Position numbers and translations under genes: made by a program. Positions 19,389-42,147 of a DNA stretch of 64,000 nt are shown here, in pieces. Source of the DNA: a virus (lineage: Duplodnaviria > Heunggongvirae > Uroviricota > Caudoviricetes); IMG/VR virus record IMGVR_UViG_3300032116_012976; one strand, 5' to 3'. The notes under the pieces were generated by a model, which ran no database searches, was not told the DNA's origin, and saw only the letters and a list, made by a program, of their open reading frames with translations. Position 1 is the first letter of the stretch. Every line of letters starts with the position of its first letter.

Positions 19389-20460
19389 TGTATTCTACCT
19401 CTAAGTCTGTAAGCTCAGGGTAGATAGGCAAACTCAAACATCTGCGGCTAAGTGCATAACTGGCACTCAACATGTCTGGCCCTTGGTACTGTTGGAATAC
19501 AGGCAGTTCCTGTAGTGGTTCGGCATAGTGGATCTTGGTTTCAATCTTGCGCAAAGAGAGATTGCGTTGCACAATGTCACGTTGATCCACTTCAATCACA
19601 AACTTGTGATAGCAATGTTTGTCAAAATTGCTTTTGTCAATCAATGATCGTATGGGTGACTTTTCCAAGCGGTTCATCCAATAGGCAGCAATAGTACTTC
19701 TACGACTTTGCCATGCAGCCAAGTGCCGGGTCTTGATCATCATTTGCGCACAGTCCACCTCACTCATGCGTGAGTTGGTGCCTATTTCGCTGTGCTTGAG
19801 ATACTTGCCGTTGTTTACATAGTCTCTAGCAAACTCTTGCAGTTCATACCTGTTGGTCACTACAGCACCACCGTTGCCGTAGTTGGCAAAGTTTTTTGTA
19901 GGGTCAAAACTTATAGCGGCTGATTCGCTATGTCTATGGCATTTGTCGGCCAACCAGTGCTGTGCGGCATCTTCCACAATGATGTCGCCGTGATTGCGCC
20001 AGTGCTGATGAACACTCTGTCCATACAGGCCAACAAGGCACACTGCTTGATAACTTAGGTCTCGAGGCAACTTTCTATAGTCCATTTGCCCATAGTTGTC
20101 TGTGTCCAAGATGTAGATATTCCAGCCGGCTCGAATCCAAGCATTGGCAGTGGCTGGATAGGTCAGCGCAGGTATGACCACTGTGGGTGGTGTGATGCCG
20201 ATCTTGCTTCTAAAGTATTCAGCAATGATCTCTAGGGCATGTGTGCCTGAGTGACACAAGGTAGCATACTTGACACCGTTCTTTCTGCTGATCCAATGCG
20301 CAAACTCAGCAGTATAGTTGCCATCCATCAGTTGTCCCGAACGCAACACTTCATCAGTCACGTCCAGGATTTCCTGTCGGAGATTGTTATACTGCTTGCG
20401 GAGACCAGTAAACGGAATTGTTAAGCCAGTGGTAGTAATTTTCAAATCCTTCTTGAACAT
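19360..20460 (-). CDS. DegT/DnrJ/EryC1/StrS-family PLP sugar aminotransferase
   Basis: IPFTGLRKQY...VLRSGQLMDG, ...AISFDPTKNF... The start must lie upstream of the IPF motif, so it overlaps the epimerase 3' end by about 50-90 nt. Converges on, and overlaps, the end of ORF 15789. Confidence 0.8.
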   Translation of the reverse strand: MFKKDLKITTTGLTIPFTGLRKQYNNLRQEILDVTDEVLRSGQLMDGNYTAEFAHWISRKNGVKYATLCHSGTHALEIIAEYFRSKIGITPPTVVIPALTYPATANAWIRAGWNIYILDTDNYGQMDYRKLPRDLSYQAVCLVGLYGQSVHQHWRNHGDIIVEDAAQHWLADKCHRHSESAAISFDPTKNFANYGNGGAVVTNRYELQEFARDYVNNGKYLKHSEIGTNSRMSEVDCAQMMIKTRHLAAWQSRRSTIAAYWMNRLEKSPIRSLIDKSNFDKHCYHKFVIEVDQRDIVQRNLSLRKIETKIHYAEPLQELPVFQQYQGPDMLSASYALSRRCLSLPIYPELTDLEVEYIIDQLLEIV

Positions 20461-21355
20461 CAACCCGGGGATCAAAGCCTAATACTTGTCTGGCCTTGTC
20501 GATATTTAGTGCGCCACGGCTGGGAAAGTCTGCGTCTTTGTCTTTTACTTCTATTGAGCCCGAGCCCACAATGTCAACCACCATTTGGGCGGCCTGGAGG
20601 AGTGAGACTGAATGAGATTTAGTGATATTGTAAGTGTCGTTCGCAGCACCCACTTCCAATGCAGCCGCCACAATGCCATCCGCAGCGTCATCAACATAGG
20701 TAAAGTCAAGAGTCTCTCCCGCTCCGTTGACATTGAGAACTTGACCACGCATGGCTCGGAGCATAAATTTTGCCACAACACGATCTTCAACATCCAACGG
20801 ACCGTATACCGCTGAGGGGCGTATAATAACATATTCCATTCCTGTTCGACGAGCATAATCTTTTACCAGCCATTCTCCTGCAAGTTTCATGATGCCGTAT
20901 TGTCCAATTGGATTGCACGGAGCATCCTCAGTTACCTGATCGTCGAAGTCTCCGTACACCATTGAGCTTGAGATGTACACAAAGCGTCTAACACCGTATC
21001 TTTTGGCACTCTCAAGAACGTTGATCAGGCCACGCATCATTACATCAGCGCCGTGTGCAGGATTGGCGTTGACAACTTTCTGACGTGGAAATGAGGCCAT
21101 ATGGACAATCACTTCAGGCTGTTGAACTCTGATCACATAGTCAATGGTGTCCGCAGTTTCAATTGAGGCTGCATACAAAGGATGCCGATCAATCTTGACG
21201 GCTCGTTCTTCCATCAAGTAGTCTAATTCGGCCTGTGGAATAATGCCATAGTTGGTTTTGTTGTCAATGATGCTGACTGTGTGACCCTGGCGTTTGAGCC
21301 TTTGCACCACATTGTGTCCAATTAGGCCGTAGCCACCAGTTGTTAGTATTTTCAT
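20387..21355 (-). CDS. NAD-dependent epimerase/dehydratase (SDR)
   Basis: MKILTTGGYGLIGHNVV Rossmann motif; YxxxK region ...QYGIMKLAGE. Start moved to the ATGA junction at 21355. Confidence 0.85.
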   Translation of the reverse strand: MKILTTGGYGLIGHNVVQRLKRQGHTVSIIDNKTNYGIIPQAELDYLMEERAVKIDRHPLYAASIETADTIDYVIRVQQPEVIVHMASFPRQKVVNANPAHGADVMMRGLINVLESAKRYGVRRFVYISSSMVYGDFDDQVTEDAPCNPIGQYGIMKLAGEWLVKDYARRTGMEYVIIRPSAVYGPLDVEDRVVAKFMLRAMRGQVLNVNGAGETLDFTYVDDAADGIVAAALEVGAANDTYNITKSHSVSLLQAAQMVVDIVGSGSIEVKDKDADFPSRGALNIDKARQVLGFDPRVDVQEGFENYYHWLNNSVYWSPQAV

Positions 21356-21651
21356 TTGTTTCTCCACTTCATTTGATACCACATATAGACTCGTTCGTCC
21401 ATTATGGTAAAGTTGCCTGCTCTACTGTAGTCCCAAAAACGCCCATTGATATATTGTCCTGGATAGCCATAAGTTTCGATCAACCAACGCTCTTGCTCTA
21501 TAGTATGCACACCTTTGTGTTTGTACAGTGTCATTGGCACAAACTTTTCACCATCCCATACCTGCTTGCGCACCGGAGGTGGGAGAACTATATCTGACTC
21601 GTCGGCATATTCTATTACTGGTTGCCACCCCATTTGAGCCTCCAGAAACAT
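21352..21651 (-). CDS. hypothetical protein
   Basis: 99-aa ORF, coupled to the downstream gene. Confidence 0.5.
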   Translation of the reverse strand: MFLEAQMGWQPVIEYADESDIVLPPPVRKQVWDGEKFVPMTLYKHKGVHTIEQERWLIETYGYPGQYINGRFWDYSRAGNFTIMDERVYMWYQMKWRNK

Positions 21652-28843: not shown

Positions 28844-29575
28844 TTACATTGGGATCAAATGCTCCAGCTCGCTTTGCCCATGCACATCAATGATAAAGTG
28901 CAGTCTTGGATGTGGGCTGTTATTTTTTACCCAGTGCTTTAGACCTGCGTTGAAAAAATAAACACGACCGTCTGCTGGTAGGTGCTGTTCTTGTATGCCT
29001 TGTTTGGTTAGCATAAACATACTGACGTCAGGGTGAGTCAGCACAGGAATGTGAAACCTTGTGACATAACTGGGGTCATAATCAAAGTGCGGTTTGATTT
29101 CGTGACCTGCTCCTAGGTATGCCAGTCTTGCTCTAGTAATTCGACTGGTAAACATGTCAAAAATCCGTTCAATCTCACCAGTCACCATGTTGGTGCGTAC
29201 TCCGTAGTTGAGATCGTCAGCTTCGGGCACATACCGAGGATCATTGGGATCCTGACGCTTGACTCGTTCTATCATGGTTGTGGCTTTAACTTCCACAGGC
29301 CCACGGCTTTTTGATTTGTCAAACTCAGTAAGTTGTATCTGTCTAAATTTTTCACTTTCCAAACTGGGTGCATCTGCTTCTTTAAACAAATTATCCAAGG
29401 TCCATTGGTTGGCTTTGATGAATGGAGTGAATGCACCATCAGTACTGGCCTTGACATCAACATAGTGATCCCAGTCTAGGAGACTGTTGTCTTTCAAGTG
29501 TTTGATCAATTGTGGTGTGTCTATGTGAAAATTGTTCAGATAGCCAAACGCTGGAAGTTGTTTTCGTGTTTTCAT
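28844..29575 (-). CDS. aspartyl/asparaginyl beta-hydroxylase-family (LpxO-like) 2OG-Fe(II) oxygenase
   Basis: HFDYDPSYVTRFHIPVLT...FFNAGLKHWVKNNSPHPRLHFIID matches the H-x-D...R-x-H-x-P...H-x-V-x-N-x-S...R-x-H pattern of that family. Confidence 0.55.
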   Translation of the reverse strand: MKTRKQLPAFGYLNNFHIDTPQLIKHLKDNSLLDWDHYVDVKASTDGAFTPFIKANQWTLDNLFKEADAPSLESEKFRQIQLTEFDKSKSRGPVEVKATTMIERVKRQDPNDPRYVPEADDLNYGVRTNMVTGEIERIFDMFTSRITRARLAYLGAGHEIKPHFDYDPSYVTRFHIPVLTHPDVSMFMLTKQGIQEQHLPADGRVYFFNAGLKHWVKNNSPHPRLHFIIDVHGQSELEHLIPM

Positions 29576-30303
29576 TGTTTGACCAGTCTAATTAAATATC
29601 CAGCAACATCAATTTGCCACCACTTTAGTCCAAAGCGCCAGTCACTGGGATTGGCATGATGATTGTTGTGCCATCCTTCGCCCCACACAAGTACACCTAA
29701 AATAGGATTGTTAACACTGGTATCTTTGCCAGGATAATCTTGCCAGCCTATGGTGTGACCAATGTTGTTGATCAAACCGCCTGCATGGAATAAAAACAAA
29801 GCAGGCACCAAGTGAGCATAGACCACAGCCATTGGATCTATAGCATACAGTATCACAGCATACGCACCGTGTATGGCCCAATAGTAATTGTGCATGAATG
29901 CATGAAATCTACTGCGCATGAGATCAGTAACCATTCTAAGACTGGGCTGATTGAACATGATTAAAAATTGCACACGGAAGAATCCTTTGTGCAAGGGACT
30001 GTGGGGATCGCGTTCGGTATCCACAAATTTATGATGTTCACGATGTATGGCAACCCAAGCAATACTAGAGCCCACTCCACCGAGAGTGCCAATTATGGTG
30101 CCAAGGTATTCCCACCAAGCAGGTGCTTTATAACTTCTATGACTCAATAGTCTGTGAAAAGTTGCACTGGCACCAATACTGCCAGTTACAACGTATACGC
30201 CAAACGCTACGGCCCATTGCCACCATTCACCATTCACCATTAGGCACACCAAGGCAGCTATGCACATGGTTTGAAAAACAAACAACCAGTTTATGCGTTT
30301 CAT
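29572..30303 (-). CDS. membrane fatty-acid desaturase (acyl-CoA/lipid delta-9-like)
   Basis: Three His boxes: HRLLSHRSY, HREHHKFVDTERDPHSP, GEGWHNNHHANP. Confidence 0.85.
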   Translation of the reverse strand: MKRINWLFVFQTMCIAALVCLMVNGEWWQWAVAFGVYVVTGSIGASATFHRLLSHRSYKAPAWWEYLGTIIGTLGGVGSSIAWVAIHREHHKFVDTERDPHSPLHKGFFRVQFLIMFNQPSLRMVTDLMRSRFHAFMHNYYWAIHGAYAVILYAIDPMAVVYAHLVPALFLFHAGGLINNIGHTIGWQDYPGKDTSVNNPILGVLVWGEGWHNNHHANPSDWRFGLKWWQIDVAGYLIRLVKQ

Positions 30304-31001
30304 GATCTTACTACCTCGCCATAGATTCTTCTAGTGTTGTTGCCACCAGCCAAAGAAACAATCTCTCCCGGTTCTACATCTCTAGTAACAGTGATTCGAG
30401 GATGTAGTTCAGCATTACTACCAATATTTGGTCCGCGCTCATTGTTAAATTTGCCGTACCCTACAATTGCAGTGTCAGGGTGAATTAACACATTGTCACC
30501 TAATGTTACTCTACTACAAATTTTTACAAATTCATGTAGGATGCAATTTTTTCCAATAGTGGTATGATGCGCAACAGTAGTAGAATTATGTATTCGGCTG
30601 TGAGCACCAATCTTTGTATAATGTGCTACTCCGGCGTTGAATCCAATATAGCACCCTGGGCCAATTTCTGCTTCGTCATACACCTCACTGGCTGGATGTA
30701 TCAGCGTTGCACAGTTGAGTTTATGTTGATCAATCAGATCAATATACGCAAGTCTTTTGGATTTCGATCTTAGATCAAGACTTGACCAAGACATTCCAAC
30801 AAAAAAATCATACTGGTCTCGAGCAGCCTCAAAATCAAACGAGTCTTCGCTTCCAATCACAGGCAATCCATTTTTAGTATCAGTGTTCCTGTAATAATCA
30901 CTGTCAACAATACCTGCAACGGGTATGTTACGAAGAGTACACACTCTTATAAAAATTTCTAAGTTTGTACTGGTGCCTAAAAAAACAATTGGTTTGTGCA
31001 T
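30300..31001 (-). CDS. hexapeptide-repeat sugar acetyltransferase (NeuD/PglD-like)
   Basis: N-terminal KPIVFLGTSTNLEI...VAGIVDSD, plus a left-handed beta-helix repeat region. Start moved to MHKPIVF. Confidence 0.65.
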   Translation of the reverse strand: MHKPIVFLGTSTNLEIFIRVCTLRNIPVAGIVDSDYYRNTDTKNGLPVIGSEDSFDFEAARDQYDFFVGMSWSSLDLRSKSKRLAYIDLIDQHKLNCATLIHPASEVYDEAEIGPGCYIGFNAGVAHYTKIGAHSRIHNSTTVAHHTTIGKNCILHEFVKICSRVTLGDNVLIHPDTAIVGYGKFNNERGPNIGSNAELHPRITVTRDVEPGEIVSLAGGNNTRRIYGEVVRS

Positions 31002-31042
31002 GCGATTATTTAAGTTAGTGTGCGAGCAAATAAATATTTCAT

Positions 31043-31825
31043 ATGAAAATCTCTCGCTCCTTGATCGACCCAGTGGCACTCAGTTCCGTTGGCATGTTAT
31101 TTCCAATTTGGACAGTGATCTGGTTGACAATAAACTGGTCATGGACTACATTTTTTGTTGTGCTATTGACCAGTTGGTTTATGGGAATTCACATCACTAT
31201 GTTTGCGCATCGCGCCTGGTGTCATCGCGCCTGGAAACCTAGTTCAGTAGTTGATTTGTATGGACTTGTTGTATTTACCTTGTGCCTAGTAGGCAACAGC
31301 ATTGGATGGGTGGGAATTCATCGCGAACATCATGCACATTGTGACACTGACCGTGATCCACATTCTCCATATCATAAGAGTCGGTGGGCTATTCAATTTT
31401 TGAGCTATTTCAATCAAGTCAAAACCAAATACATTGTGGACCTTGGTAGAGATTCTCGCCATCTTTGGTTTTATCATTGGTACTGGGCCCTCAACATAGT
31501 TTGGTTTGCATTGTTATTTGCAATTGATCCTGCCCTGGTAGGATTATGGATAGCAGTAATTGGACTCACAGTGTTCAAACTTCACACAATCAATTCATTG
31601 TGTCATCGCACACCTTGGTTCTTGCTACCTATACACAATGATGACACCAGCAGTAACAGTGTGCTGATGGTGTTATTAAACATCAACAATGGCGAAGCTT
31701 GGCACAAGAACCATCATCAAAATGCAGCCAACTATAGATTCAGTCAACGCTGGTATGAAATTGACCCACCTGCCAGAATAATTGAACTACTGGCGCAATT
31801 CAAGCTGGCCAGTATCAATCGCTGA
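31043..31825 (+). CDS. membrane fatty-acid desaturase (second copy, plus strand)
   Basis: HRAWCHRAW, HREHHAHCDTDRDPHSP, GEAWHKNHHQN. Confidence 0.85.
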   Translation: MKISRSLIDPVALSSVGMLFPIWTVIWLTINWSWTTFFVVLLTSWFMGIHITMFAHRAWCHRAWKPSSVVDLYGLVVFTLCLVGNSIGWVGIHREHHAHCDTDRDPHSPYHKSRWAIQFLSYFNQVKTKYIVDLGRDSRHLWFYHWYWALNIVWFALLFAIDPALVGLWIAVIGLTVFKLHTINSLCHRTPWFLLPIHNDDTSSNSVLMVLLNINNGEAWHKNHHQNAANYRFSQRWYEIDPPARIIELLAQFKLASINR

Positions 31826-32698
31826 CCCATCAAATGGGCTAACATAGCCCATGGCTCTCCACAACAGACGGTTTTCAATATTTTCAAATGCAGGACGAGC
31901 ATGCATGCTCAACCACTGGCAATTGATAATTATTTCATAGTCTTGCCAATGATGAGCGTACTGGTACTTGGGCTGAGTTAGAAATTTGTACAGATAACTG
32001 AACCATGCTTGTTGTCCAGCGTTTGGAACTGGTGTTTTGCCAATATAGAATATTGGATTTTGCATGGGTGACCAATGGATGCCCGTGGCCCCTGATTTGT
32101 TTTGAGTAACAAATTTGTTAAATCCTGTTCTGCCTTGATAGTTAACGTCTGCAGCCATAGGCCCGTTATCTGTACTGCCTGAGTAATTGTAATAACACAT
32201 GAGCTGATCCAGACTTCTTAATAGTCCAACTGGTGTATCGGTTGCTTGCCTAAGATCGTTTAATGCTTGTATGCTGTTGGTAAATCCTGTGATGCTGCCT
32301 TCAGTATGTTCTACCCCGTACAAACACAAAGCATCGGGACGTTCTGCGGCAGTTCTTCCTGGTTCGTTGCAGTGCCAAGGCAAATCATCTGGCATGCCAA
32401 ATAATCCAGTGATTTCACCGTGGACATCTTTCTTACCAGTGACTCTGATAATTTCTTTGTTGGTTTGTTCGACAAATATTTTTTCTTTGGCTGGAAGATC
32501 GTTATTGAGATCATCAAACACACCAGAAGTAAATTGATGATATTGATCAATGGTTAACGGTTGCGTGTTATGGATTACAACCAGCAAGTTGGTATAAGGT
32601 AGCGTTCTTAATTGATCGCGTTCGGTGCTGTTTACATCTAGCACGTTTAGTTGATCTACATGCACTACCCAGCCGTTTGGATCTAAAGTTAATTTCAT
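31787..32698 (-). CDS. TauD/TfdA-like 2OG-Fe(II) dioxygenase (paralog A)
   Basis: DLPWHCNEPG... resembles the HxD region of TauD-like enzymes. Paralogous to ORF 33739. Confidence 0.4.
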   Translation of the reverse strand: MKLTLDPNGWVVHVDQLNVLDVNSTERDQLRTLPYTNLLVVIHNTQPLTIDQYHQFTSGVFDDLNNDLPAKEKIFVEQTNKEIIRVTGKKDVHGEITGLFGMPDDLPWHCNEPGRTAAERPDALCLYGVEHTEGSITGFTNSIQALNDLRQATDTPVGLLRSLDQLMCYYNYSGSTDNGPMAADVNYQGRTGFNKFVTQNKSGATGIHWSPMQNPIFYIGKTPVPNAGQQAWFSYLYKFLTQPKYQYAHHWQDYEIIINCQWLSMHARPAFENIENRLLWRAMGYVSPFDGSAIDTGQLELRQ

Positions 32699-32817: not shown

Positions 32818-33438
32818 TTAATCTACATGATGCTCAGTTTTGAAATTGCCGTTTTGCAAGCCAATCCGTCCACCTTCTGCTTCAATGCGTTTGTACACAT
32901 CTTCCAACAAGATAGGCGCAAAATCAGTCTGCTCCACACATACGCAATGATACCGCACATCCAGTTCTGTGCCATACAAGATCTCTCCTGTACGGGCATC
33001 AACACCACGAGCTTTCTTAACTCGAGTGGCGTGCAAGTGTCCGTGGATGTTTACACCAAAGCGACCCAAGCTAGATTCATGCACAGGAATGTGACTCAAG
33101 ATCATTCCGTTCAACACATGATATGCTCGCAATTCACGAAAGTACCTGCGGTACTCATCATCACGGAAGATATCATGGTTGCCGCGGATCAATACCTTGT
33201 CGCCGTTCAAGCGATGTAACGTAGGCAATGCCTTGCGGTTAATAACCACGTCACCCAAATGGTAGACCTTGTCTGATGGACGAACACGGTCGTTCCAACG
33301 GCGGATCATTTCCTCATCCATCTCTGCAGGATCATCCCACGGACGCAATTTCACAGTGTCATCATCTGGGTGTGTAAACTTGCACACGCCAACATGACCA
33401 AAATGCGTGTCGCTTACCAAAAATGTTGCTGGCATCAT
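32818..33438 (-). CDS. metallophosphoesterase (calcineurin-like)
   Basis: VSDTHFGH, LGDVV, RGNHD, GHLH motifs. Confidence 0.8.
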   Translation of the reverse strand: MMPATFLVSDTHFGHVGVCKFTHPDDDTVKLRPWDDPAEMDEEMIRRWNDRVRPSDKVYHLGDVVINRKALPTLHRLNGDKVLIRGNHDIFRDDEYRRYFRELRAYHVLNGMILSHIPVHESSLGRFGVNIHGHLHATRVKKARGVDARTGEILYGTELDVRYHCVCVEQTDFAPILLEDVYKRIEAEGGRIGLQNGNFKTEHHVD

Positions 33439-33738: not shown

Positions 33739-34608
33739 TCACACTAAAGTATTAGAAATGTTGCAGTGATCAAAGTTAAGAGCAATGCGATGCACCACTC
33801 GATTCTGAATGTTTTCACAGCGCCATCTTTTGTGAATACTTAACCATTGTTCACTTAACACAATGTCACCGTCTTGCCAATCGTGGTGATATGTGTATTT
33901 TTCTTGCTCCACATGTTGTCGTAATTTTTGAATTAGGGCATCGCTTTTGTCTTTGTCAAAACCCAGTATCTGATGAATTTGTAAAAACGAAAAAAACATG
34001 CCTGTGACACCAGCCTGGTTGGTGTGTAACAAACTTGGATACCAATTGTGGTTGATGGCATTTGAATCTCGACTGGTGATTGTGTAAGTGTCTTCAGAGA
34101 TCACCCTAGCATCAAACCCCATGACCAGTTTTAAATCTTTGATTTGTTCTTTGAGTTCTTGGTCAAGATCTTGATAACTCAAAATGTTGTTGATCCAACT
34201 GGTTCGGCTGCCAACAGAATCTTTTACTGAATACAACCAAATCAACGGATCTCGGTCTTCACTACCGGTTCTATTGCAGTGCCAATCTAGATCACTCACA
34301 TGTTCAAACACACCTGGTTGTCCATGATGGTGACCACCGCCACCTACTCTGACAATTTTACCACGCCCGCCTTGTACTAATTTTGTGCCCGGTGTTGGCG
34401 TATTAGCCGGCGCCACTTGCTCACATGCACCAATTTTTTCACAGATGTCAACTTCGTCTCCGGGCAAAAGGTGTTGATCGCGTATCACAACCACGGTGTC
34501 TTTGGCAGCAAGCCAAGCAATGGTATTCATCTCTTGCTGTGAAGCAGAACGTAAATCAATATCAGTAATGATTGAAGTCCAACCATTTTCGTGTAGTTGT
34601 ATTTTCAT
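33739..34608 (-). CDS. TauD/TfdA-like 2OG-Fe(II) dioxygenase (paralog B)
   Basis: LDWHCNRTGSEDRDP... Same N-terminal MK(L/I)xLxxNGW as ORF 31787. Confidence 0.4.
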   Translation of the reverse strand: MKIQLHENGWTSIITDIDLRSASQQEMNTIAWLAAKDTVVVIRDQHLLPGDEVDICEKIGACEQVAPANTPTPGTKLVQGGRGKIVRVGGGGHHHGQPGVFEHVSDLDWHCNRTGSEDRDPLIWLYSVKDSVGSRTSWINNILSYQDLDQELKEQIKDLKLVMGFDARVISEDTYTITSRDSNAINHNWYPSLLHTNQAGVTGMFFSFLQIHQILGFDKDKSDALIQKLRQHVEQEKYTYHHDWQDGDIVLSEQWLSIHKRWRCENIQNRVVHRIALNFDHCNISNTLV

Positions 34609-35030
34609 GTGTCTAATTGCACTTCTTGCCAGGTCGAGTCGCCGAGCATTTTAACTGCCATCACGTAGGTGTGCTGTTCTCCAGGGCCAGCGCACCAGTG
34701 ATGCGGATGATTCATACTCAACCAATGCTCGTTTTTTATTGAGTTAAAATACACATAGTAAGTTTTACCATGTCGAGGTTGTAAGCCGTACTTGACGCCG
34801 TGCATGATCTCACTAACATGCAGGCGTTGTTGAAGTGCGTCGGCCTGTTGTTTTAACACTTCAACTTGTTGCATGATCCTGTCATATTCTTGTTGAGCAT
34901 GCATTCGCCCTACATTGAGTATGACATCTTTTTCTCGTTCAACAGGAACAGGGGCAAACGCAGGACTGCCCAACTCCATTGGGTAAGGCAGACTGTTTCT
35001 TCTATCTCCGTCTTCTTTAGATAGATCCAT
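34605..35030 (-). CDS. hypothetical protein
   Basis: 141-aa ORF, ATGA-coupled. Confidence 0.5.
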   Translation of the reverse strand: MDLSKEDGDRRNSLPYPMELGSPAFAPVPVEREKDVILNVGRMHAQQEYDRIMQQVEVLKQQADALQQRLHVSEIMHGVKYGLQPRHGKTYYVYFNSIKNEHWLSMNHPHHWCAGPGEQHTYVMAVKMLGDSTWQEVQLDT

Positions 35031-35286
35031 TGGTTCTACGTCTACGTCGGGGTTCTAAATCTTGTTCGCGATAGAGATAGTCTCTTGTGATTTTGCCTTG
35101 TTCAATTTCTTCAAGTACTGCCACTGAGTTGCTGTTTTTACTTGCAACTTTTCGCATGTCGCCGCGATTGAGTTCGCGCAATCGTCGAGAAGCCACTAGC
35201 ACCAAGTCATAGCGATTGCCAATTGCGGCTACTGCGGCTTCGCTGGTCAACCCGGCTGTTCTGTCGTTACTGTGAATAATTTTCAT
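35017..35286 (-). CDS. rpoZ: RNA polymerase omega-subunit-like protein
   Basis: AAIGNRYDLVLVASRRLRELN...AVLEEIEQGKI closely mirrors the bacterial omega core (IGNRFDLVLVAARRARQ...AL(R/E)EIEEG). Confidence 0.6.
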   Translation of the reverse strand: MKIIHSNDRTAGLTSEAAVAAIGNRYDLVLVASRRLRELNRGDMRKVASKNSNSVAVLEEIEQGKITRDYLYREQDLEPRRRRRTNGSI

Positions 35287-35799: not shown

Positions 35800-35928
35800 T
35801 TACATTGCCTGGAATTCTTCCTTACCGCAACCACACTCTGGACAGTTATAGTATTTTGGCAAATCGTCAAATTTACCATCTGTCTCTTCATTGTGGACAT
35901 GGCCACATACAGTGCATACGTATTCCAT
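35800..35928 (-). CDS. rubredoxin-like domain protein (42 aa)
   Basis: MEYVCTVCGH...YNCPECGCGKEEF has two CxxC pairs. RBS aaggagacggaaATG. The longer ORF-track version overlaps the rubrerythrin ORF. Confidence 0.65.
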   Translation of the reverse strand: MEYVCTVCGHVHNEETDGKFDDLPKYYNCPECGCGKEEFQAM

Positions 35929-35938
35929 TTCCGTCTCC

Positions 35939-36376
35939 TTATTGTGCTTCTTTGTGAGCAGCCAGGGCTTTGGTGAAACGATTGGCATGTGAGCGTTCGG
36001 CTTTGGCCAGTGTTTCAAACCAGTCAGCAATCTCGTCTAAGCCTTCGTCTCTGGCAGTTTTGGCCATGCCAGGATACATGTCAGTGTATTCATGTGTTTC
36101 GCCATGAATAGCACTTTCCAGAGCCTGCTCAACAGATTTGGCACTCATGCCAGTGGCGGGATCTCCAGCACCACCTTCGATCAAGTATTCCATATGACCG
36201 TGTGCATGTCCAGTTTCGCCTTCGGCAGTTGAACGGAACAAGGCAGCAACGTCATTGTCGCCTGCTACGTCGGCCATGTTTGCGAAATACAAGTATCGAC
36301 GATTGGCTTGCGATTCTCCGGCAAATGCCGCCTTCAAGTTTTCTTCGGTACGGGTACCTTTTACAGATTGTGTCAT
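35939..36376 (-). CDS. rubrerythrin diiron (ferritin-like) domain protein
   Basis: [27 protein letters not shown]...[10 protein letters not shown]...HGETHEY...AERSHANRF. Confidence 0.85.
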
Positions 36377-36478: not shown

Positions 36479-36553
36479 TGGCCGGCCCTGAGAGGATCGA
36501 ACTCCCACCGCTTGTTTCGAAGACAAGCATGATATCCATTTCACCAAGGGCCG
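36479..36553 (-). tRNA. tRNA-Arg(TCG)
   Basis: Hand-folded cloverleaf: 7-bp acceptor (cggccct/agggccg on plus), T-arm, anticodon loop CTTCGAA, CCA encoded. Confidence 0.8.
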
Positions 36554-36558
36554 AGAAT

Positions 36559-36632
36559 TGGTGCTCCCAACTGGTAACGATCCAGTGTTTCTACATTACC
36601 AATGTAGTGTAATGCCTTTATACTATGAGAGC
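36559..36632 (-). tRNA. tRNA-Thr(GGT)
   Basis: Acceptor with one G:U, anticodon loop TTGGTAA, atypical T-loop ATCGTTA, CCA encoded. Confidence 0.7.
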
Positions 36633-36636
36633 TAAG

Positions 36637-36710
36637 TGGAGCAGGATACCAGAATCGAACTGGTGACTGGACCTTGGCAAGGTTCTATTTTACCCCTAAA
36701 CTAATCCTGC
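36637..36710 (-). tRNA. tRNA-Gly(GCC)
   Basis: Acceptor gcaggat/atcctgc, anticodon loop TTGCCAA, CCA encoded. Confidence 0.8.
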
Positions 36711-36723
36711 ATTCCGTTACTTA

Positions 36724-37200
36724 TTAGGCAGCTCGTAAACTCTTAAATCTATCTGCCGCGTATGATGCTGCAAATGCTTCTGGCTTCACAAACGGAATCA
36801 CATTGCATGTTCCTTTGATGTAGCCCACAGCTTGCGAGATCACACAACTTGAACCGTATTGTTCGTCTGGGTTGATGTCCAAGTGAACTTCAACTTGACG
36901 GCCTTCTAGTACGTCAGCCAGTTTCAAATACAGTTCTGAAACCTTGTACACTTCGGTCATCAAACGCATGGCAGGTTTGCCTGGTTTCACGTCCCACACA
37001 CGCTCGCGTTGAACTTCGCCAAACAGTTTGCAGCCGTTGTTGCCGTTGATGTGTACCACAATGGCCAACACATAGTCGGCATACCAGGTACCGTCAATTT
37101 TGATTCGTTCAGAGTCGCAGCCAAGGTAGATGCGAGTTTCGGGCGTTTGTTTCTGGATAAATTCTGCTACTGATGCTATATCGAGCTTTTTCATTTTCAA
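36724..37200 (-). CDS. YkuK/DUF458-like predicted RNase H-fold protein
   Basis: IYLGCDSERIKIDGTWYADYVLAIVVHINGNNGCKLF...EVHLDINPDEQYGS recalled as the ykuK-family pattern. From memory only. Confidence 0.45.
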   Translation of the reverse strand: MKMKKLDIASVAEFIQKQTPETRIYLGCDSERIKIDGTWYADYVLAIVVHINGNNGCKLFGEVQRERVWDVKPGKPAMRLMTEVYKVSELYLKLADVLEGRQVEVHLDINPDEQYGSSCVISQAVGYIKGTCNVIPFVKPEAFAASYAADRFKSLRAA

Positions 37201-37223
37201 CTTTCAAAAATATTTATTGATAG

Positions 37224-37300
37224 TGGTACCCCAGGAGGGATTCGAACCCTCAGAATTCTCCTTTTGAGAGAGACACGTATTCCAGTTCCGTCACCGGGGC
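37224..37300 (-). tRNA. tRNA with Leu anticodon CAA but class-I (short variable loop) architecture, 77 nt
   Basis: GCCCCGG TG ACGG AACTGGAAT ACGT G TCTCT CTCAAAA GGAGA ATTCT GAGGG TTCGAAT CCCTC CTGGGGT A CCA. Confidence 0.7.
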
Positions 37301-37306
37301 ATTTGC

Positions 37307-37341
37307 AAAAAAAAAAACAGTAGGACTGGCCTACTGTTTTT
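37307..37341 (-). terminator. rho-independent terminator (bidirectional shape)
   Basis: acagtagg-actgg-cctactgt hairpin flanked by A11 and T5. On the minus strand it is followed by a long T-run. Confidence 0.8.
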
Positions 37342-37371
37342 ATAACTTGTGTCAGACAATCTGATCATGCG

Positions 37372-37671
37372 TTATTCTGTATAATCTTCTACAGTAAATG
37401 ACACAGGAACAACACTAAAAGTTGAAAGTTGTGCAGTCATCCATTCAACAAAGTCTTCTGCATTTTTTTTGTTTTCCCATTTTCGAGTTACAGTTAAATG
37501 GGTGGGACCTAGTTCTGACGGGTCGAGACCTGCGGTACCAACCACAGTAAAGTCATCATGCCCACCGTCTCCAACAATTTGTAAATAATTACTCCAAGGG
37601 ATAATAGTTCTTGCTGTTTCTCGATCTTCTACAGACGCATACACCAACACAGTTTTAGCAACTATAGCCAT
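37372..37671 (-). CDS. hypothetical protein
   Basis: Start moved to MAIVAKTV, preceded by ggagat. Confidence 0.5.
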   Translation of the reverse strand: MAIVAKTVLVYASVEDRETARTIIPWSNYLQIVGDGGHDDFTVVGTAGLDPSELGPTHLTVTRKWENKKNAEDFVEWMTAQLSTFSVVPVSFTVEDYTE

Positions 37672-37690
37672 AATAATCTCCTTTTTGTAT

Positions 37691-38464
37691 TTATTGCTTT
37701 GCGGCAATCACGCTTAAATGCCAACCTAGCTGTTGATTGACAGCCTGGCGTTGTGCATCGCTCATGGCAGCAAACCATGGTTCCAACACATAATTTCCTT
37801 GTTTGTACTGCTCTACATTGTACATAAAACAGTAATCTTGCTTGATGCTTTTGATATCAAAGTGTACGTCCAGCAGTTTTTGTATTTCTCCTTGACTGTA
37901 AACTCTGGCATATGGGCAGTTGTCTTGCGCTTCAAACTGGTCCAGCCCAGACTGAATCATTGCCCATTTCCAACTGTTGCGAGCATACACTAGGAAACGA
38001 AACTCCCCATCAGATGCTAGACTTGCGTAAGCATTGCTGACCACTTGTTCTACATTGGGATAGTGATGCAATACACCACAAGCATACACCATATCAAATT
38101 GTCCTAGCCCTGCAACACGCTGACTGTCGCCTGCGTCCATGTGATAGAATTCAGCATCTAATCCCATAACAGTAAATCTCTGCTCACAAAGTTCTATGCT
38201 ACGACTGCTAAGATCAATCCCAACGTATTCAGCACCATGCCGTACAAATTGTTCAGCATCAGATCCAATGCCGCATCCTAGTTCTAGCACCCGCCGTCCC
38301 TTGCAGTTTTCAAAGTCGGCCAACTGCCACAAATGCGGCCCAACAAACCATCTACGACGATTGATGTTGTTCCAAAATTCTTCTGTGCCTTCTGGTGCCA
38401 ACCCATGCTTTATATTACAAGGTTGTTGATCCCAGTACTGTTCTATTTGAGTAATTGTAGCCAT
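37691..38464 (-). CDS. class I SAM-dependent methyltransferase
   Basis: Motif I VLELGCGIGSD. Post-I VGIDLS. Confidence 0.75.
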   Translation of the reverse strand: MATITQIEQYWDQQPCNIKHGLAPEGTEEFWNNINRRRWFVGPHLWQLADFENCKGRRVLELGCGIGSDAEQFVRHGAEYVGIDLSSRSIELCEQRFTVMGLDAEFYHMDAGDSQRVAGLGQFDMVYACGVLHHYPNVEQVVSNAYASLASDGEFRFLVYARNSWKWAMIQSGLDQFEAQDNCPYARVYSQGEIQKLLDVHFDIKSIKQDYCFMYNVEQYKQGNYVLEPWFAAMSDAQRQAVNQQLGWHLSVIAAKQ

Positions 38465-38502
38465 ACAGTGTATTTAAAAGTCTGTGCAAGCTACATTAAA
38501 TT

Positions 38503-38579
38503 TGGTGCCCCAGAGGAGACTCGAACTCCTAAAATTTGGCTTCTAAGACCAACACGTATACCAATTCCGTCACCGGGGC
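38503..38579 (-). tRNA. tRNA with Leu anticodon TAG but class-I architecture, 77 nt
   Basis: GCCCCGG TG ACGG AATTGGTAT ACGT G TTGGT CTTAGAA GCCAA ATTTT AGGAG TTCGAGT CTCCT CTGGGGC A CCA. Confidence 0.7.
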
Positions 38580-38590
38580 TTAAATACATC

Positions 38591-38794
38591 ATGCAAACCA
38601 AACAAGACTCCATCAAAAAAATAGAGCGTTTGCTTGCAATGGAAACATTGGGCAAAACGTTTGTGACCAAACAACAACAGTTGGCCTACGAGCGCGGATA
38701 TCTAACAGGCTTGCTGGCTGCTATGGCCTACAACGACAATTCAGTCGAGCATGTGGTGAATCAACGCATCAAACATCTTACACCTAAAATCTAA
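38591..38794 (+). CDS. possible 67-aa ORF on the opposite strand within the tRNA array
   Basis: MQTKQDSIKKIERLLAMETLGK... Internal Met of ORF 38333..38794, whose upstream part overlaps a tRNA. No obvious RBS. Confidence 0.3.
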   Translation: MQTKQDSIKKIERLLAMETLGKTFVTKQQQLAYERGYLTGLLAAMAYNDNSVEHVVNQRIKHLTPKI

Positions 38795-38795
38795 C

Positions 38796-38871
<76 letters not shown>

Positions 38872-38876
38872 ATGAA

Positions 38877-38951
38877 TGGTGGGTGATGAGAGGATCGAAC
38901 TCCCGACAAACTGCGTGTAAGGCAGCGACTCTACCGCTGAGCTAATCACCC
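38877..38951 (-). tRNA. tRNA-Val(TAC)
   Basis: Acceptor gggtgat/atcaccc, anticodon loop CTTACAC, CCA encoded. Confidence 0.8.
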
Positions 38952-38956
38952 GTATA

Positions 38957-39047
38957 TGGTGGAAGTGGTGAGATTCGAACTCACGGACCCCTTTCGGAGC
39001 CGGCAGTTTTCAAGACTGCTGCAATCAACCAACTCTGCCACACTTCC
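38957..39047 (-). tRNA. tRNA-Ser(TGA), class II
   Basis: 91 nt, acceptor ggaagtg/cacttcc, anticodon loop CTTGAAA, long variable arm, CCA encoded. Confidence 0.8.
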
Positions 39048-39241
39048 TAAAAAATTAAAAAAGATACTGCTTTGCGTTTAAAGGTACTGAACATCCTTTC
39101 GGGTAGCTCACATCCTTCCTGGCACATGGTTCGACTGTGACTAGCAGTCTGGAACTTAATCCCAGCGGCACCTGGATAACGTTAAGGTCCCTAGCAGTTG
39201 GGCCCATAGTCAATGAGTTTTTCACACATCTTTTCTAAACT
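39048..39241 (-). other. unassigned 194-nt spacer in the tRNA array (possible small RNA)
   Basis: No ORF. Contains the direct repeat ggtactgaacatcc / ggtagctcacatcc and a duplicated ctagcagt. The minus strand ends in a T-rich run before tRNA-Ser. Confidence 0.25.
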
Positions 39242-39317
39242 TGGAGTAGGTGACAGGACTCGAACCTGCATTATACGGATTTGCAATCCGGCGCCTAGCC
39301 ATTCGGCACACACCTAC
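39242..39317 (-). tRNA. tRNA-Cys(GCA)
   Basis: Anticodon loop TTGCAAA, discriminator U73 as expected for Cys, CCA encoded. Confidence 0.8.
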
Positions 39318-39323
39318 ATCTAT

Positions 39324-39400
39324 TGGTCGGAGTACGAGGGTTCGAACCTCGGACCTCCTGGTCCCAAACCAGGCGCACTACCAGGCTGTGCTATACTCCG
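39324..39400 (-). tRNA. tRNA-Pro(TGG)
   Basis: Acceptor cggagta/tactccg, anticodon loop TTTGGGA, CCA encoded. Confidence 0.8.
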
Positions 39401-39406
39401 TGTATT

Positions 39407-39625
39407 TTATTTTACTTTGGGTTCTTGACTTTTGTCAAGTTCATGGGGTTCAGCAAATCTTGTGCCGTGGCCCAGATTCCAACTGTCTGCTGTGAAAATT
39501 TTTACAGGCTTCCAGTAACGACTTATGATGTTGTTGACAGCAACAGCCGCCGCCACAATCACTACAAATCCTATTGCTGTCAAAATACTACCAGCTAAGA
39601 ATACAGCCGCTTGATCCATGTCCAT
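39407..39625 (-). CDS. small membrane protein (72 aa) inside the tRNA array
   Basis: One clear hydrophobic helix AAVFLAGSILTAIGFVVIVAAAVAV. Confidence 0.5.
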   Translation of the reverse strand: MDMDQAAVFLAGSILTAIGFVVIVAAAVAVNNIISRYWKPVKIFTADSWNLGHGTRFAEPHELDKSQEPKVK

Positions 39626-39638
39626 TGTTTGTTCCTTG

Positions 39639-39712
39639 TGGAGCAGGGTAGGGGAATCGAACCCCTCGCTTTAGCTTGGAAGGCTAAGGTATTACCACTA
39701 TACGAACCCTGC
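39639..39712 (-). tRNA. tRNA-Gly(TCC)
   Basis: Acceptor gcagggt/accctgc, anticodon loop CTTCCAA, CCA encoded. Confidence 0.8.
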
Positions 39713-39760
39713 GTTAAAATACTTATTATACAACACTCAGACACTGTTGTAAAGATCATT

Positions 39761-39835
39761 TGGTTGCCATGGACAGTTTCGAAATGTCGACCTATCGCTT
39801 ATCAAGCGATTGCTCTTCCTCTGAGCTACACGGCA
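39761..39835 (-). tRNA. tRNA-Ile(GAT)
   Basis: Anticodon stem atcgc/gcgat, loop TTGATAA, CCA encoded. Confidence 0.75.
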
Positions 39836-39841
39836 AAAACT

Positions 39842-39915
39842 TGGCACGGGTACTAGGGCTCGAACCTAGAATGACAGAGTCAAAGTCTGTAGTGTTACCA
39901 TTACACTATACCCGA
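39842..39915 (-). tRNA. tRNA-Gln(TTG)
   Basis: Anticodon loop CTTTGAC, unpaired U1-U72 and G73 (Gln-like identity features), CCA encoded. Confidence 0.75.
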
Positions 39916-39927
39916 ACAAAAACTATT

Positions 39928-40002
39928 TGGTGGATGTAAGTAGAGTCGAACTACCACTTGACTCCGTATGAAGGAGGCGCACTACCATTATGCTATACAT
40001 CC
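39928..40002 (-). tRNA. tRNA-Met or Ile2 (CAT)
   Basis: GGATGTA...CCTCC TTCATAC GGAGT... Full cloverleaf. Met versus lysidine-Ile cannot be decided by eye. Confidence 0.7.
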
Positions 40003-40006
40003 ATGT

Positions 40007-40098
40007 TGGTACCCCCACCGGGAGTCGAACCCAGATGAACCAATTATCTGTTGCTTACGGGATATAAATCCGCCGTTTTACCATTAAACTATAGGGGC
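40007..40098 (-). tRNA. 92-nt tRNA with a 22-nt variable region; best-fit anticodon TAT (identity undetermined)
   Basis: GCCCCTA TA GTTT AATGGTA AAAC G GCGGA TTTATAT CCCGT AAGCAACAGATAATTGGTTCAT CTGGG TTCGACT CCCGG TGGGGGT A CCA. The A31-C39 pair is a mismatch. Confidence 0.55.
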
Positions 40099-40103
40099 AT
40101 GTC

Positions 40104-40178
40104 TGGGGTGTCGTATGAGAATCGAACTCATGACAGCGGAATCACAACCCGCGGTTTTGCCACTAAACTAACGTCACC
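40104..40178 (-). tRNA. tRNA-His(GTG)
   Basis: Anticodon loop TTGTGAT, C73 and an encoded G-1 (His hallmarks), CCA encoded. Confidence 0.8.
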
Positions 40179-40267
40179 ATATAGGAACACACTCAGGCGT
40201 AGTAGTTCGTTAGCCCACTAAGATACACGGCTACCACCCGTGTCATTAGTTGAATGTGTTTTTATAT
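40179..40267 (-). ncRNA. clamp-stem element filling the His-Lys tRNA spacer (89 nt)
   Basis: Arms atataggaacacactc (40179..40194) and gaatgtgtttttatat (40252..40267) pair around a ~57-nt insert with an internal hairpin acacgg/ccgtgt. Confidence 0.5.
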
Positions 40268-40341
40268 GGTAGGGGCGCCGGGATTCGAACCCGAAATTGG
40301 CAGATTAAAAGTCTGCTGTGATACCGTTTCACCACACCCCC
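40267..40341 (-). tRNA. tRNA-Lys(TTT)
   Basis: Anticodon stem gcaga/tctgc, loop CTTTTAA, CCA encoded. Confidence 0.8.
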
Positions 40342-40402
40342 GGTATCTTGTCACTCTTGTCACTATTCATGACAGACTCTCCTTTTTAAAATAAGTATTT
40401 GA

Positions 40403-41527
40403 ATGAACAAATATTGTCCAAAACCATTTGTTAGTATTCATATGTATACTGATAAAGATCTCAATCCAACTGTTAGGCCTTGTTGCAATTACAAACCTAT
40501 CAAGCAGTACGCAACGATTAATGATTATTTGCAATCATCTGAACTAGCGTCTCTTCAGCAACATTTGCTTACAAAAGAATCATTGCCAGATGGATGCAAG
40601 GCATGCAAAGTAGACGAAGATAATAACTTGCCTAGTATCCGAAACAAGTATATTAAAGTGTTTGAGCATGAAACCAAAACTAAAATTGTTGACTTGGAAA
40701 TTTTCCCTGGCAACGCATGTAATCTCAGTTGCTTGTCGTGCAATCCTTCTCATAGTACCAAATCAGGTCAGGAATATGCCAAACTTGGATGGATTAAACA
40801 ATCAATAGTGATCAATCACGAAGATCATGCACTTGAAGTTATTAAACAGTTGCCAGACCTTAAATCAATAGGTTTTATTGGCGGCGAATTTTTTGTAACC
40901 AAACACAATATTGAATTGCTCGATGCGGTTATTGAAAAAAATCTTAAAACACGAATTATTACCAATGCCACTCAACTAACCAAAAAACATCTTGAGCGGT
41001 TACAAAAAATATCTGACCTTGATGTGATGGTTAGTGTAGACGGTACTGGGCCAACATTTGAATTTTTACGCTATCCGGCACAATGGTCAGTTGTGCAATC
41101 AAACATTGTTGCACTACAACAGGCATTGCCCGGAGCAAAGATACATTTGTCGGCAGTGTTGCAATTTTTAAATTTGCAAAATATCATTGAACTGTTTGAA
41201 TACGCCAATGTCCGTCGACTGCCATTTAATGTGATCCCTTTATCTTATCCTGTTTGGCTACAGTCAGAAGTGCTTACCACTCTCGAACGTCAGCAGTTGA
41301 TTGCAGTTATACAAAAACAACTAACAGTTGCAAAACTTACCAAAACACAAAAACAGTTAATGACTGATACATGTAGTATGCTAGAAACAATACAGCACTC
41401 ACCTGCTCAACGAGAACAGTTTGTGTCTCGAACAAGCCAGCTGATTCGACTGCGCAACATCACACAACACACAATCAACTCAGTGTTTGGTGTGCTAGAA
41501 AATTTAGCGCAAGAAGTTATACAATAG
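40403..41527 (+). CDS. radical SAM enzyme (type B paralog) embedded in the tRNA array
   Basis: YCPKPFVSI...RPCC, CNLSCLSCN, IGGEFFV. Confidence 0.8.
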   Translation: MNKYCPKPFVSIHMYTDKDLNPTVRPCCNYKPIKQYATINDYLQSSELASLQQHLLTKESLPDGCKACKVDEDNNLPSIRNKYIKVFEHETKTKIVDLEIFPGNACNLSCLSCNPSHSTKSGQEYAKLGWIKQSIVINHEDHALEVIKQLPDLKSIGFIGGEFFVTKHNIELLDAVIEKNLKTRIITNATQLTKKHLERLQKISDLDVMVSVDGTGPTFEFLRYPAQWSVVQSNIVALQQALPGAKIHLSAVLQFLNLQNIIELFEYANVRRLPFNVIPLSYPVWLQSEVLTTLERQQLIAVIQKQLTVAKLTKTQKQLMTDTCSMLETIQHSPAQREQFVSRTSQLIRLRNITQHTINSVFGVLENLAQEVIQ

Positions 41528-41567
41528 CCAGGGACCTAACTCGTCAAGGGAGAGTATGGCTATGTGT

Positions 41568-41645
41568 TGGTACCACCTGAGAGATTCGAACTCCCCGCCC
41601 CTGCGTTCGTAGCACAGTGCTCTAATCCAAATGAGCTAAGGTGGT
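41568..41645 (-). tRNA. tRNA-Arg(ACG)
   Basis: Acceptor accacct/aggtggt, anticodon loop CTACGAA, CCA encoded. Confidence 0.75.
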
Positions 41646-41653
41646 GTATTGAA

Positions 41654-41853: not shown

Positions 41854-41856
41854 ACT

Positions 41857-41930: not shown

Positions 41931-41936
41931 GAATTG

Positions 41937-42026: not shown

Positions 42027-42031
42027 TGACT

Positions 42032-42107: not shown

Positions 42108-42147
42108 ATAATCTACTTAGTAGGCACTCGAGCCTACTACAAAAATA

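Follow-up and report, generated by a model that had tools for sequence, protein, structure and literature searches.

A conserved desaturase–hydroxylase gene pair in a very large phage and its possible role in tailoring the host envelope

Introduction

Does a phage that carries several genes for putative lipid-modifying oxidative enzymes use them as one unit, and on which substrate? The question is raised by a gene cluster in the IMG/VR virus record IMGVR_UViG_3300032116_012976. We analysed a 64,000-nucleotide stretch from this record (the window), in which positions 28,844 to 31,825 encode a putative Fe(II)/2-oxoglutarate (2OG) hydroxylase (HYD), a fatty-acid desaturase (DES1), a hexapeptide-repeat acetyltransferase (HEX) and a second, divergent desaturase (DES2). 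A sequence-only reading of the window had described these genes as a cluster that remodels host lipids and the envelope. It had missed that the conserved core of the cluster is the pairing of a desaturase (DES) with HYD, and that two TauD-like oxygenases are part of the same syntenic island.

Virus-encoded desaturases are an accepted yet thinly tested class of auxiliary metabolic gene (AMG). The literature on viral fatty-acid desaturases (vFADs) reports a demonstrated Δ9 activity on C16 chains for two cyanophage enzymes (PMC5776448) and an inferred desaturase AMG in viruses from sea ice and cryopeg and from Lake Baikal (PMC7300359, PMC7678222). The vFADs are read there as membrane-fluidity AMGs, possibly supplied with electrons by a phage ferredoxin, and a hydroxylase partner goes unmentioned in the text that we searched in these three papers. 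In pelagimyophages, Asp/Asn hydroxylase genes belong to the core genome, and fabF and a stearoyl-CoA desaturase have been noted in the freshwater members (PMC7029224). Viral desaturases are already known, but a conserved DES–HYD module appears to be undescribed; the literature that we searched contains no description of the pair, of a triad with a PerB-like enzyme or of a bacterial counterpart.

Results

The HYD family comprises proteins of about 245 residues in more than 120 clusters. It is almost virus-only, with relatives encoded in 120 viral stretches and in only 4 contigs, all from metagenome-assembled genomes (MAGs), when one genome each from 185,579 bacterial and archaeal species was searched. 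Open reading frames (ORFs) were called in all fetched loci, which were then searched with the window proteins. After HYD loci had been made non-redundant at 90% identity (n = 56), the nearest desaturase gene was found directly upstream on the same strand in 22, directly downstream on the same strand in 3 and adjacent on the opposite strand in 1. A further 23 loci have a desaturase within 5 kb that is not adjacent, bringing those with a desaturase no more than 5 kb from HYD to 49 of 56, of which 26 are directly adjacent. The nearest desaturase is 5–10 kb away in 2 loci, and none was found in the remaining 5.

The same association is seen from the side of the desaturase, whose relatives occur in at least 582 viral stretches. 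A HYD-family gene is present in 47 of 71 non-identical desaturase-centred loci, about two thirds of those sampled, and lies within 100 bp of a desaturase in 28 of the 47, on the same strand in 25 of these 28. When gene order within the 47 loci was shuffled 2000 times, 7.7 ± 2.4 pairs came to be neighbours, and never more than 16, against the 28 observed. Pairing covers HYD identities of 27–60%, and in the isolate Pelagibacter phage Mosig an FA_desaturase gene abuts a distant Asp_Arg_Hydrox gene, as confirmed by hhalign. The DES–HYD linkage is thus non-random and long-lived, extending across distant viral lineages and to a Bdellovibrionaceae chromosome. Desaturases next to HYD are spread over several clades, which rules out one dedicated HYD-partner clade. 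A mirror-tree comparison of the two families gave a modest correlation (Pearson 0.52, Spearman 0.21, Mantel p = 0.001), which may reflect shared phage ancestry and is not used as evidence here.

Within the window, the pair closes an operon on the minus strand, in which HEX (30300–31001) precedes DES1 (29572–30303, 243 residues) and HYD (28844–29575, 243 residues). At both junctions, HEX/DES1 and DES1/HYD, the stop codon of one gene and the start codon of the next lie in a 4-nt overlap, ATGA. An intrinsic terminator with a T8 tail sits 46 nt past the HYD stop on the minus strand (28798–28778) and consists of a 9-bp stem (5 GC), a 3-nt loop and then TTTTTTTT. Given the overlaps and the terminator 3′ of HYD, HEX-DES1-HYD is a single translationally coupled transcription unit closed by a strong terminator, which bears out the cotranscription of hydroxylase, desaturase and acetyltransferase that had been proposed. 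As listed, the HEX ORF covers 30300–31079 (minus strand) and opens with GTG at 31079, but translation probably begins with the ATG at 31001, since the homologues are 226–233 residues long. About 41 bp separate this ATG from the start of DES2 (31043–31825, plus strand, 260 residues), the second desaturase, which is divergent as described. Every ORF named in the sequence-only reading is present, with a significant domain match. Metagenomic homologues of the cluster genes reach 92–100% identity and every family is large, indicating that these ORFs are real genes.

DES1 matches the Pfam family FA_desaturase (PF00487, E = 4e-16, 60.0 bits against a cutoff of 29.7) and, as had been noted, has three His boxes (HX4H, HX2HH and HX2HH, here HRLLSH, HREHH and HNNHH), with N179 and H183 as additional ligands. 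DES2 is 38% identical to DES1 and retains all of the His ligands (HRAWCH, HREHH and HKNHH). It matches the NCBIfam DesA_fam model (E = 6e-18), while Pfam returned no match at E < 0.01. A third desaturase, DES3 (49536–50300, minus strand), matches PF00487 (8.5e-18, 65.5 bits against 29.7) and is 44% identical to DES1, so that the three are paralogues at 38–44% identity. When 12 diverse desaturase sequences were aligned, H50, H55, H87, H90, H91, H183, H212, H215 and H216 were invariant; the extra Asn ligand is found in all three window paralogues, which retain all metal ligands of stearoyl-CoA desaturase SCD1.

The best solved relative of DES1 is SCD1 itself (4ymk, 5e-17). SCD1 structures (4ymk, 4zyo) and DES1 have in common nine metal-ligand positions and two transmembrane hairpins, whereas the phage enzymes are about 100 residues shorter and lack the N- and C-terminal extensions. 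Kyte–Doolittle peaks at about residues 7–49 and 143–178 of DES1, with DES2 and DES3 alike, fit four transmembrane helices in two hairpins, as far as crude hydropathy can place them. All fall short of the NCBIfam DesA-family equivalog NF049918 (65–98 bits against at least 400) and align only to profile positions 4–241 of 385; at about 245 residues, the phage desaturases are truncated, 'mini' versions. Profile search thus keeps all three His-box proteins among the Δ9 acyl desaturases, and we predict that they are membrane di-iron enzymes of the stearoyl-CoA/DesC Δ9 class, all three minimal in size and with intact metal ligands.

The window desaturases are distant relatives of the cyanophage vFADs (PMC5776448). 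The cyanophage, sea-ice and lake enzymes are likewise phage-borne, short, of DesC/SCD type and equipped with three His boxes. Lipid desaturation by the predicted phage enzymes is a well-founded reading. The window differs from the vFAD systems in having three paralogues in 64 kb, and in the translational coupling of one of them with genes for a 2OG hydroxylase and a sugar N-acetyltransferase. It also differs in its candidate redox partner, a rubredoxin and not a ferredoxin.

This rubredoxin (35800–35928, minus strand) has 42 residues and a CxxC...CxxC arrangement, and may be an electron donor for the di-iron desaturases; the precedent is AlkB. As a conserved partner of DES it was rejected, being near a desaturase in just one other locus (L072), 1.4 kb upstream of DES-HYD.

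HYD matches PF05118 (Asp_Arg_Hydrox; E = 5e-8, 33.4 bits against a cutoff of 22.6). Among 88 homologues, H163-x-D165...H214 and R224 are invariant, and the 130-residue N-terminal region is family-specific and conserved, with an invariant RKxLP motif. Hydropathy reveals no transmembrane segment or membrane anchor. The AlphaFold2 (AF2) model (predicted local distance difference test, pLDDT, 94) is closest among solved structures to Cpz10, followed by L-proline hydroxylases and human AspH. HYD is accordingly predicted to be a soluble Fe(II)/2OG oxygenase of the Asp/Asn β-hydroxylase (AspH/LpxO/Cpz10) superfamily, with an intact HxD...H/Arg site.

HYD had been proposed to be LpxO-like, and of this the superfamily stands while orthology does not. 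Against the LpxO model NF033391 of NCBIfam, HYD scores 15.6 bits (E = 0.0065; model positions 137–219 of 297) where the cutoff is 500 bits. LpxO is an inner-membrane protein. The low score and the missing membrane anchor led us to reject HYD as an LpxO orthologue. LpxO is nevertheless the only curated NCBIfam model that the family matches consistently, if weakly (75 of 88 members, best E = 7.5e-9), and one member matches OlsC; the search did not move the hydroxylase to a protein-hydroxylase clade. LpxO and OlsC share with HYD the PF05118 superfamily and the same Fe(II)/2OG facial triad. Both hydroxylate lipid acyl chains (LpxO as the lipid A 2-hydroxylase, OlsC as the ornithine-lipid acyl 2-hydroxylase), which would suit a desaturase partner. 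HYD differs in aligning to LpxO over only some 85 core residues, in its own conserved N-terminal region and in having no anchor.

Closest to HYD among solved proteins, by sequence (6e-9) and by fold (TMt 0.67), are the caprazamycin β-hydroxylase Cpz10 (7v4f; PMC9814697) and L-proline cis-4-hydroxylase (4p7w). They have the double-stranded β-helix core of HYD, at an identity of 17–19% that covers only its C-terminal half. Their substrates, soluble amino acids or nucleosides, belong to antibiotic or amino-acid metabolism, and no pairing of either enzyme with a membrane desaturase is known. For HYD, genomic context suggests a lipid substrate.

The remaining protein of the operon, read earlier as an acetyltransferase of a lipid/envelope-remodelling cluster, resembles sugar N-acetyltransferases. 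The hexapeptide repeats of HEX are clear (Hexapep, E = 1e-17), and its AF2 model (pLDDT 88) superposes on the GDP-perosamine N-acetyltransferase PerB (4ea7; TMq 0.76, TMt 0.85, root-mean-square deviation 2.2 Å over 213 columns), followed by PglD, WeeI, VioB and PglB-ATD. All of these have the same N-terminal nucleotide-binding α/β domain and left-handed β-helix as HEX, at 14–20% identity. By the NeuD/PglB/VioB model TIGR03570, HEX is a divergent member at best (92.9 bits, under the 160.8 cutoff). H134 and H145, at least 90% conserved, are candidate counterparts of PerB His141. An LpxA/LpxD-like acyl-ACP (acyl carrier protein) lipid acyltransferase was rejected on fold (TM 0.2–0.46) and domain content: Pfam found neither PF04613, the uridine-binding domain at the N terminus of LpxD, nor PF13720, the helical domain at the C terminus of LpxA, and the likeness is confined to the hexapeptide repeats. 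From its modelled fold, HEX is predicted to be a two-domain nucleotide-amino-sugar N-acetyltransferase of the PerB/PglD/NeuD type, a glycan rather than a lipid enzyme. Unlike PerB, PglD, PglB-ATD, VioB and WeeI, it shares an operon with a desaturase instead of glycosyltransferases.

About 9 kb from HEX, the window encodes a DegT/DnrJ/EryC1 aminotransferase (19360–20475, minus strand; PF01041, 5e-53) and an NDP-sugar 4,6-dehydratase/epimerase (20387–21382, minus strand; PF01370, 3e-46; PF16363, 6.5e-35). Dehydratase, DegT and HEX would together make up the canonical three-step route to NDP-4-acetamido-4,6-dideoxyhexose, which is an established pathway. No glycosyltransferase was identified among the window ORFs scanned. 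HEX is confined to the closer relatives (10 of 56 HYD loci), where it mostly lies directly ahead of DES-HYD.

In the nearest relatives of the window (L007/L093, L008/L094 and L013), the operon genes belong to an island of metallophosphoesterase, TauD, HEX, optionally a second TauD, DES, HYD, AAA and VWA genes, in shuffled order. The window counterparts are TauD1 (31787–32698, minus strand; TauD/TfdA-family Fe(II)/2OG oxygenase, PF02668, 5.8e-19), whose stop is overlapped by the DES2 3′ end by 39 nt, a metallophosphoesterase (32818–33438, minus strand; PF00149, 9e-6) and TauD2 (33739–34608, minus strand; PF02668, 2.9e-24). A TauD1 homologue lies directly upstream of HEX in L007, L008 and L013, and metallophosphoesterase orthologues are found upstream of HEX in more than 10 loci. 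The TauD2 counterpart (83.5% nucleotide identity) is placed between HEX and DES1 in L007/L093, giving in L007 the order TauD-HEX-TauD-DES-HYD with overlapping genes. DES2 has an orthologue in L008/L094 that is likewise inverted, and placed elsewhere in L094. Against solved structures, TauD1 and TauD2 gave merely weak, uninformative matches to CarC and TauD.

Some loci accommodate other genes within or beside the pair. The order is HEX-DES-radical SAM-x-DegT-x-x-HYD in L002, DES-DegT-x-x-HYD in L012 and L016, and DES-HYD-x-KAS-DES (KAS, ketosynthase) in L040, L044, L143 and L147, while L055 and L057 have extra cupin paralogues, recognised by sequence motifs only, between DES and HYD. In phage Mosig, the pair lies in a block of aminotransferases, radical SAM enzymes, TauD, a methylase and an acetyltransferase. 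The proteins inserted between DES and HYD in L002, L012, L016 and L062 match no Pfam family. A protein of about 240 residues by DegT in L012 (4895–5623) was considered as a HYD paralogue and rejected.

A separate observation concerns mosaicism between window positions 28844–30314 and positions 9990–11493 of L093 (IMG/VR 3300010885_044600). Between the two, DES1 has 84.7% nucleotide and 91% amino-acid identity. The HYD of that contig is just 60% identical, and similarity is lost some 55 nt inside the HYD gene, which suggests either an exchange of alleles or rapid evolution of the HYD N-terminal part.

Cellular relatives of HYD were found in the Bdellovibrionota. A Bdellovibrionaceae MAG contig (L089, CANBND010000058.1) encodes an overlapping DES-HYD-DES array at 5139–7556, next to LspA, a PBP4-type carboxypeptidase, an SLT transglycosylase and an M14 peptidase. 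This array is a cellular counterpart of the viral module, which may have arisen from it or given rise to it. In a further Bdellovibrionota contig (L169/L087), HYD stands beside a PF04116 fatty-acid hydroxylase, a short-chain ketoreductase, a ketosynthase, an acyl-AMP ligase and an ACP of 90 residues, and in a Bacteriovorax contig (L088) amid three GT2 glycosyltransferases, an ArnT-like PMT_2 glycosyltransferase, an amine oxidase and a radical SAM enzyme. All of these settings concern envelope lipid or glycolipid synthesis, which supports a lipid substrate for HYD. Bdellovibrio lipid A is unusual in carrying mannose in place of phosphate (Schwudke 2003, as cited in PMC2233673); any link to HYD is speculation.

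The source of the window is a very large, uncultivated phage. Related IMG/VR and JGI contigs reach 340–700 kb, and a 47.6-kb ENA contig (L091) comes from the same phage. The window itself contains 30 tRNA genes, a permuted tmRNA, a GOLLD RNA and phage-type AAA and VWA genes (PHROG, 330 and 359 bits). The phage has no close relative among sequenced phages: a megablast search of 50,697 phage records with the region gave zero matches, and tblastn of DES1 against phage records found only Pelagibacter phage Mosig and two records named 'Acinetobacter phage MD-2021a', both evidently bacterial chromosome. One of the latter (L005, CAKLQH020000002.1, 254 kb) has trpB/trpC, btuB, baeSR, ugpQ and aidB around the desaturase and is probably a mislabelled bacterial chromosome.

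Other envelope-related genes are present where the sequence-only reading had placed them, in addition to DES3. An N-terminally shortened KAS I/II-type ketosynthase (44015–44986, plus strand) retains an intact Cys95-His219-His253 triad, with no ACP found next to it. A Band_7/SPFH protein (50757–51551, minus strand) has an N-terminal hydrophobic, signal-like segment, its 'lipoprotein' label coming solely from the PHROG family description. A Porin_4 porin (46657–47547, minus strand) has a signal peptide and matches Neisseria PorB best among curated entries (E = 6e-9), which may point to a betaproteobacterial host. These three genes lie 13–21 kb from the cluster, past the tRNA array. KAS is a loosely linked lipid gene, and the link of SPFH, a Band_7 gene recurring close to DES/HYD in some relatives, is also loose; nothing was found that ties the porin to the desaturase cluster. 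The proposal that the phage rewires host membranes is reasonable for lipid unsaturation. Gene context makes its extension to the outer membrane and lipid A plausible, though unproven, and the porin is not demonstrably connected.

Between the cluster and the tRNA array, the minus strand encodes an RNA polymerase omega-like ORF (35017–35286) and a rubrerythrin (35939–36376). The array (36479–49077, minus strand) has its 30 tRNA genes, for almost all amino acids, on the minus strand, interspersed with small ORFs, a radical SAM gene (40403–41527), KAS and the porin. Inside it, just upstream of KAS, lies the full-length GOLLD RNA (42994–43458, minus strand; RF02032, 204 bits against a gathering threshold of 150) with an embedded tRNA-like element (43325–43395). 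The permuted two-piece tmRNA (47603–48132, minus strand; RF04321, 115 bits, and an alpha_tmRNA match) encodes the tag peptide ANDEKFLMAA according to ARAGORN, which could hint at the host lineage. Elsewhere, four radical SAM enzymes in a row, two of which have a SPASM domain unusually placed towards the N terminus, precede a GDSL/DUF6071 protein and a carbamoyltransferase (PF02543/PF16861) in what looks like a peptide or small-molecule tailoring cluster (1686–11037, plus strand). An asparagine synthase-like amidotransferase (PF00733 and GATase_7) lies at 56435–57976 (plus strand).

Discussion

We tentatively read the cluster as a module for oxygen-dependent tailoring of the envelope by a very large phage, with the desaturase–hydroxylase pair as its conserved core, and consider this somewhat short of an even bet. 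Such a module would probably re-tailor host envelope lipids during infection. DES1 would insert into the host inner membrane and, with O2 and two electrons from host ferredoxin or phage rubredoxin, give the C16/C18 chains of membrane lipids a cis double bond, by analogy with the cyanophage vFADs. HYD, produced in step with DES1, would act much as LpxO or OlsC do and hydroxylate the same pool of envelope lipids, on an acyl chain or on the head group. HEX would N-acetylate an NDP-4-amino-4,6-dideoxyhexose, supplied by the phage dehydratase and DegT, for an envelope glycan. The net outcome would be an envelope that is more fluid, more hydroxylated and differently glycosylated during infection; stress tolerance, virion assembly or release and the exclusion of other phages are possible benefits.

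Several results weigh against this reading. HYD scores far below the LpxO threshold and has no membrane anchor, and the proteins with the nearest solved folds, Cpz10 and the proline hydroxylases, act on small polar molecules. HEX, the gene most tightly coupled to DES1, is by prediction a sugar enzyme and is present in just 10 of 56 loci. Only a single other locus has an electron-donor gene close to DES. The Bdellovibrionota contigs derive from MAGs, and binning errors are possible for L088 and L169. Moreover, the aminotransferases, radical SAM enzymes and unknown proteins found amid or beside DES and HYD in L002, L012, L016 and Mosig fit a dedicated multi-step pathway better than bulk membrane editing.

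A pathway of that kind, in which HEX, DES, HYD and the TauD-like enzymes, with DegT and radical SAM in relatives, make or tailor one amphiphilic product, is the strongest competitor, at perhaps one chance in a few. The product could be an N-acylated amino-sugar lipid or a lipid-A-like or other glycolipid with a desaturated and hydroxylated acyl chain, serving as envelope component, signal or toxin. The presence of a sugar N-acetyltransferase and of aminotransferases among these genes would be better accounted for in this way, and the reading draws on the translational coupling of all three operon genes, on the overlapping array in L007, on DegT between DES and HYD in three loci (with radical SAM in one of them, L002), on the biosynthetic block around the Mosig pair and on the L169 HYD in a cluster of acyl-AMP ligase, ACP, ketosynthase and ketoreductase typical of specialised lipid synthesis. 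Outside the phage family, moreover, the best sequence matches of the HEX β-helix are to LpxD. However, the fold and domains of HEX match the acetyl-CoA-using PerB and PglD and not the acyl-ACP-using LpxA and LpxD, most loci have DES-HYD without any accessory gene, and three of the inserted proteins have no recognisable family, so that the pathway is not reconstructable. The Δ9-class enzymes known so far, in addition, act on ordinary acyl-lipids or acyl-CoA (for example PMC5776448).

Less likely still is a HYD that acts away from lipids. Its target would then be a small molecule in solution, such as an amino acid or a nucleoside derivative, or a residue (for example Asp, Asn or Pro) of a protein from phage or host, and what links it to DES would be common regulation or the O2 and iron that both require, not a common substrate. 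The solubility of HYD and its closest solved structures by sequence and fold (Cpz10, the L-proline cis-4- and 3-hydroxylases and human AspH) agree with this, the many Arg and Asp residues that are invariant hint at a substrate of polar or anionic character, and Asp/Asn hydroxylase genes are core in pelagimyophages without a desaturase (PMC7029224). The structural comparison may be biased, however, since no LpxO or OlsC structure is among the matches, and adjacency to DES far above chance over very distant lineages and in a bacterial chromosome, the lipid- or glycolipid-related cellular contexts and the sole consistent curated match, to LpxO, all speak for a lipid. We give the least credence to the view that there is no functional unit and that independent auxiliary genes have gathered in one hyperplastic genome island. 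Island order is indeed fluid, with TauD2 and DES2 placed differently in the window, L093 and L094; a single relative has DES1 at 91% and HYD at 60% identity, HEX occurs in a minority of loci and the mirror-tree signal is weak. Yet none of the 2000 shuffles reached the 28 adjacent pairs observed, nearly all of these pairs are same-strand, the window junctions are 4-nt overlaps, and the pair recurs in a bacterial chromosome.

A bolder reading is improbable. In it, DES-HYD, joined in some lineages by HEX, DegT, TauD-like and radical SAM enzymes, would be a virus-spread pathway shared with the Bdellovibrionota that directly desaturates and hydroxylates a glycolipid such as lipid A, or builds a new N-acyl amino-sugar lipid, with the soluble HYD docked as an obligate partner on a mini Δ9 desaturase. 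If true, a virus-spread glycolipid pathway would be enzymology undescribed for any virus, and direct desaturation of lipid A would be undescribed in any organism.

For the envelope-tailoring module that we favour, the genetic pattern is widespread and the chemistry is inferred. Viral desaturases often travel as a fixed pair with a 2OG hydroxylase, and the same pair is found in the chromosome of a predatory bacterium. The question thus shifts from a phage that tunes membrane fluidity to one that may modify lipids oxidatively in two steps. Should lipid A or another surface glycolipid prove to be the substrate, this would bear on phage exclusion, on the envelope biology of predator and prey and on the lipid diversity of aquatic bacteria.

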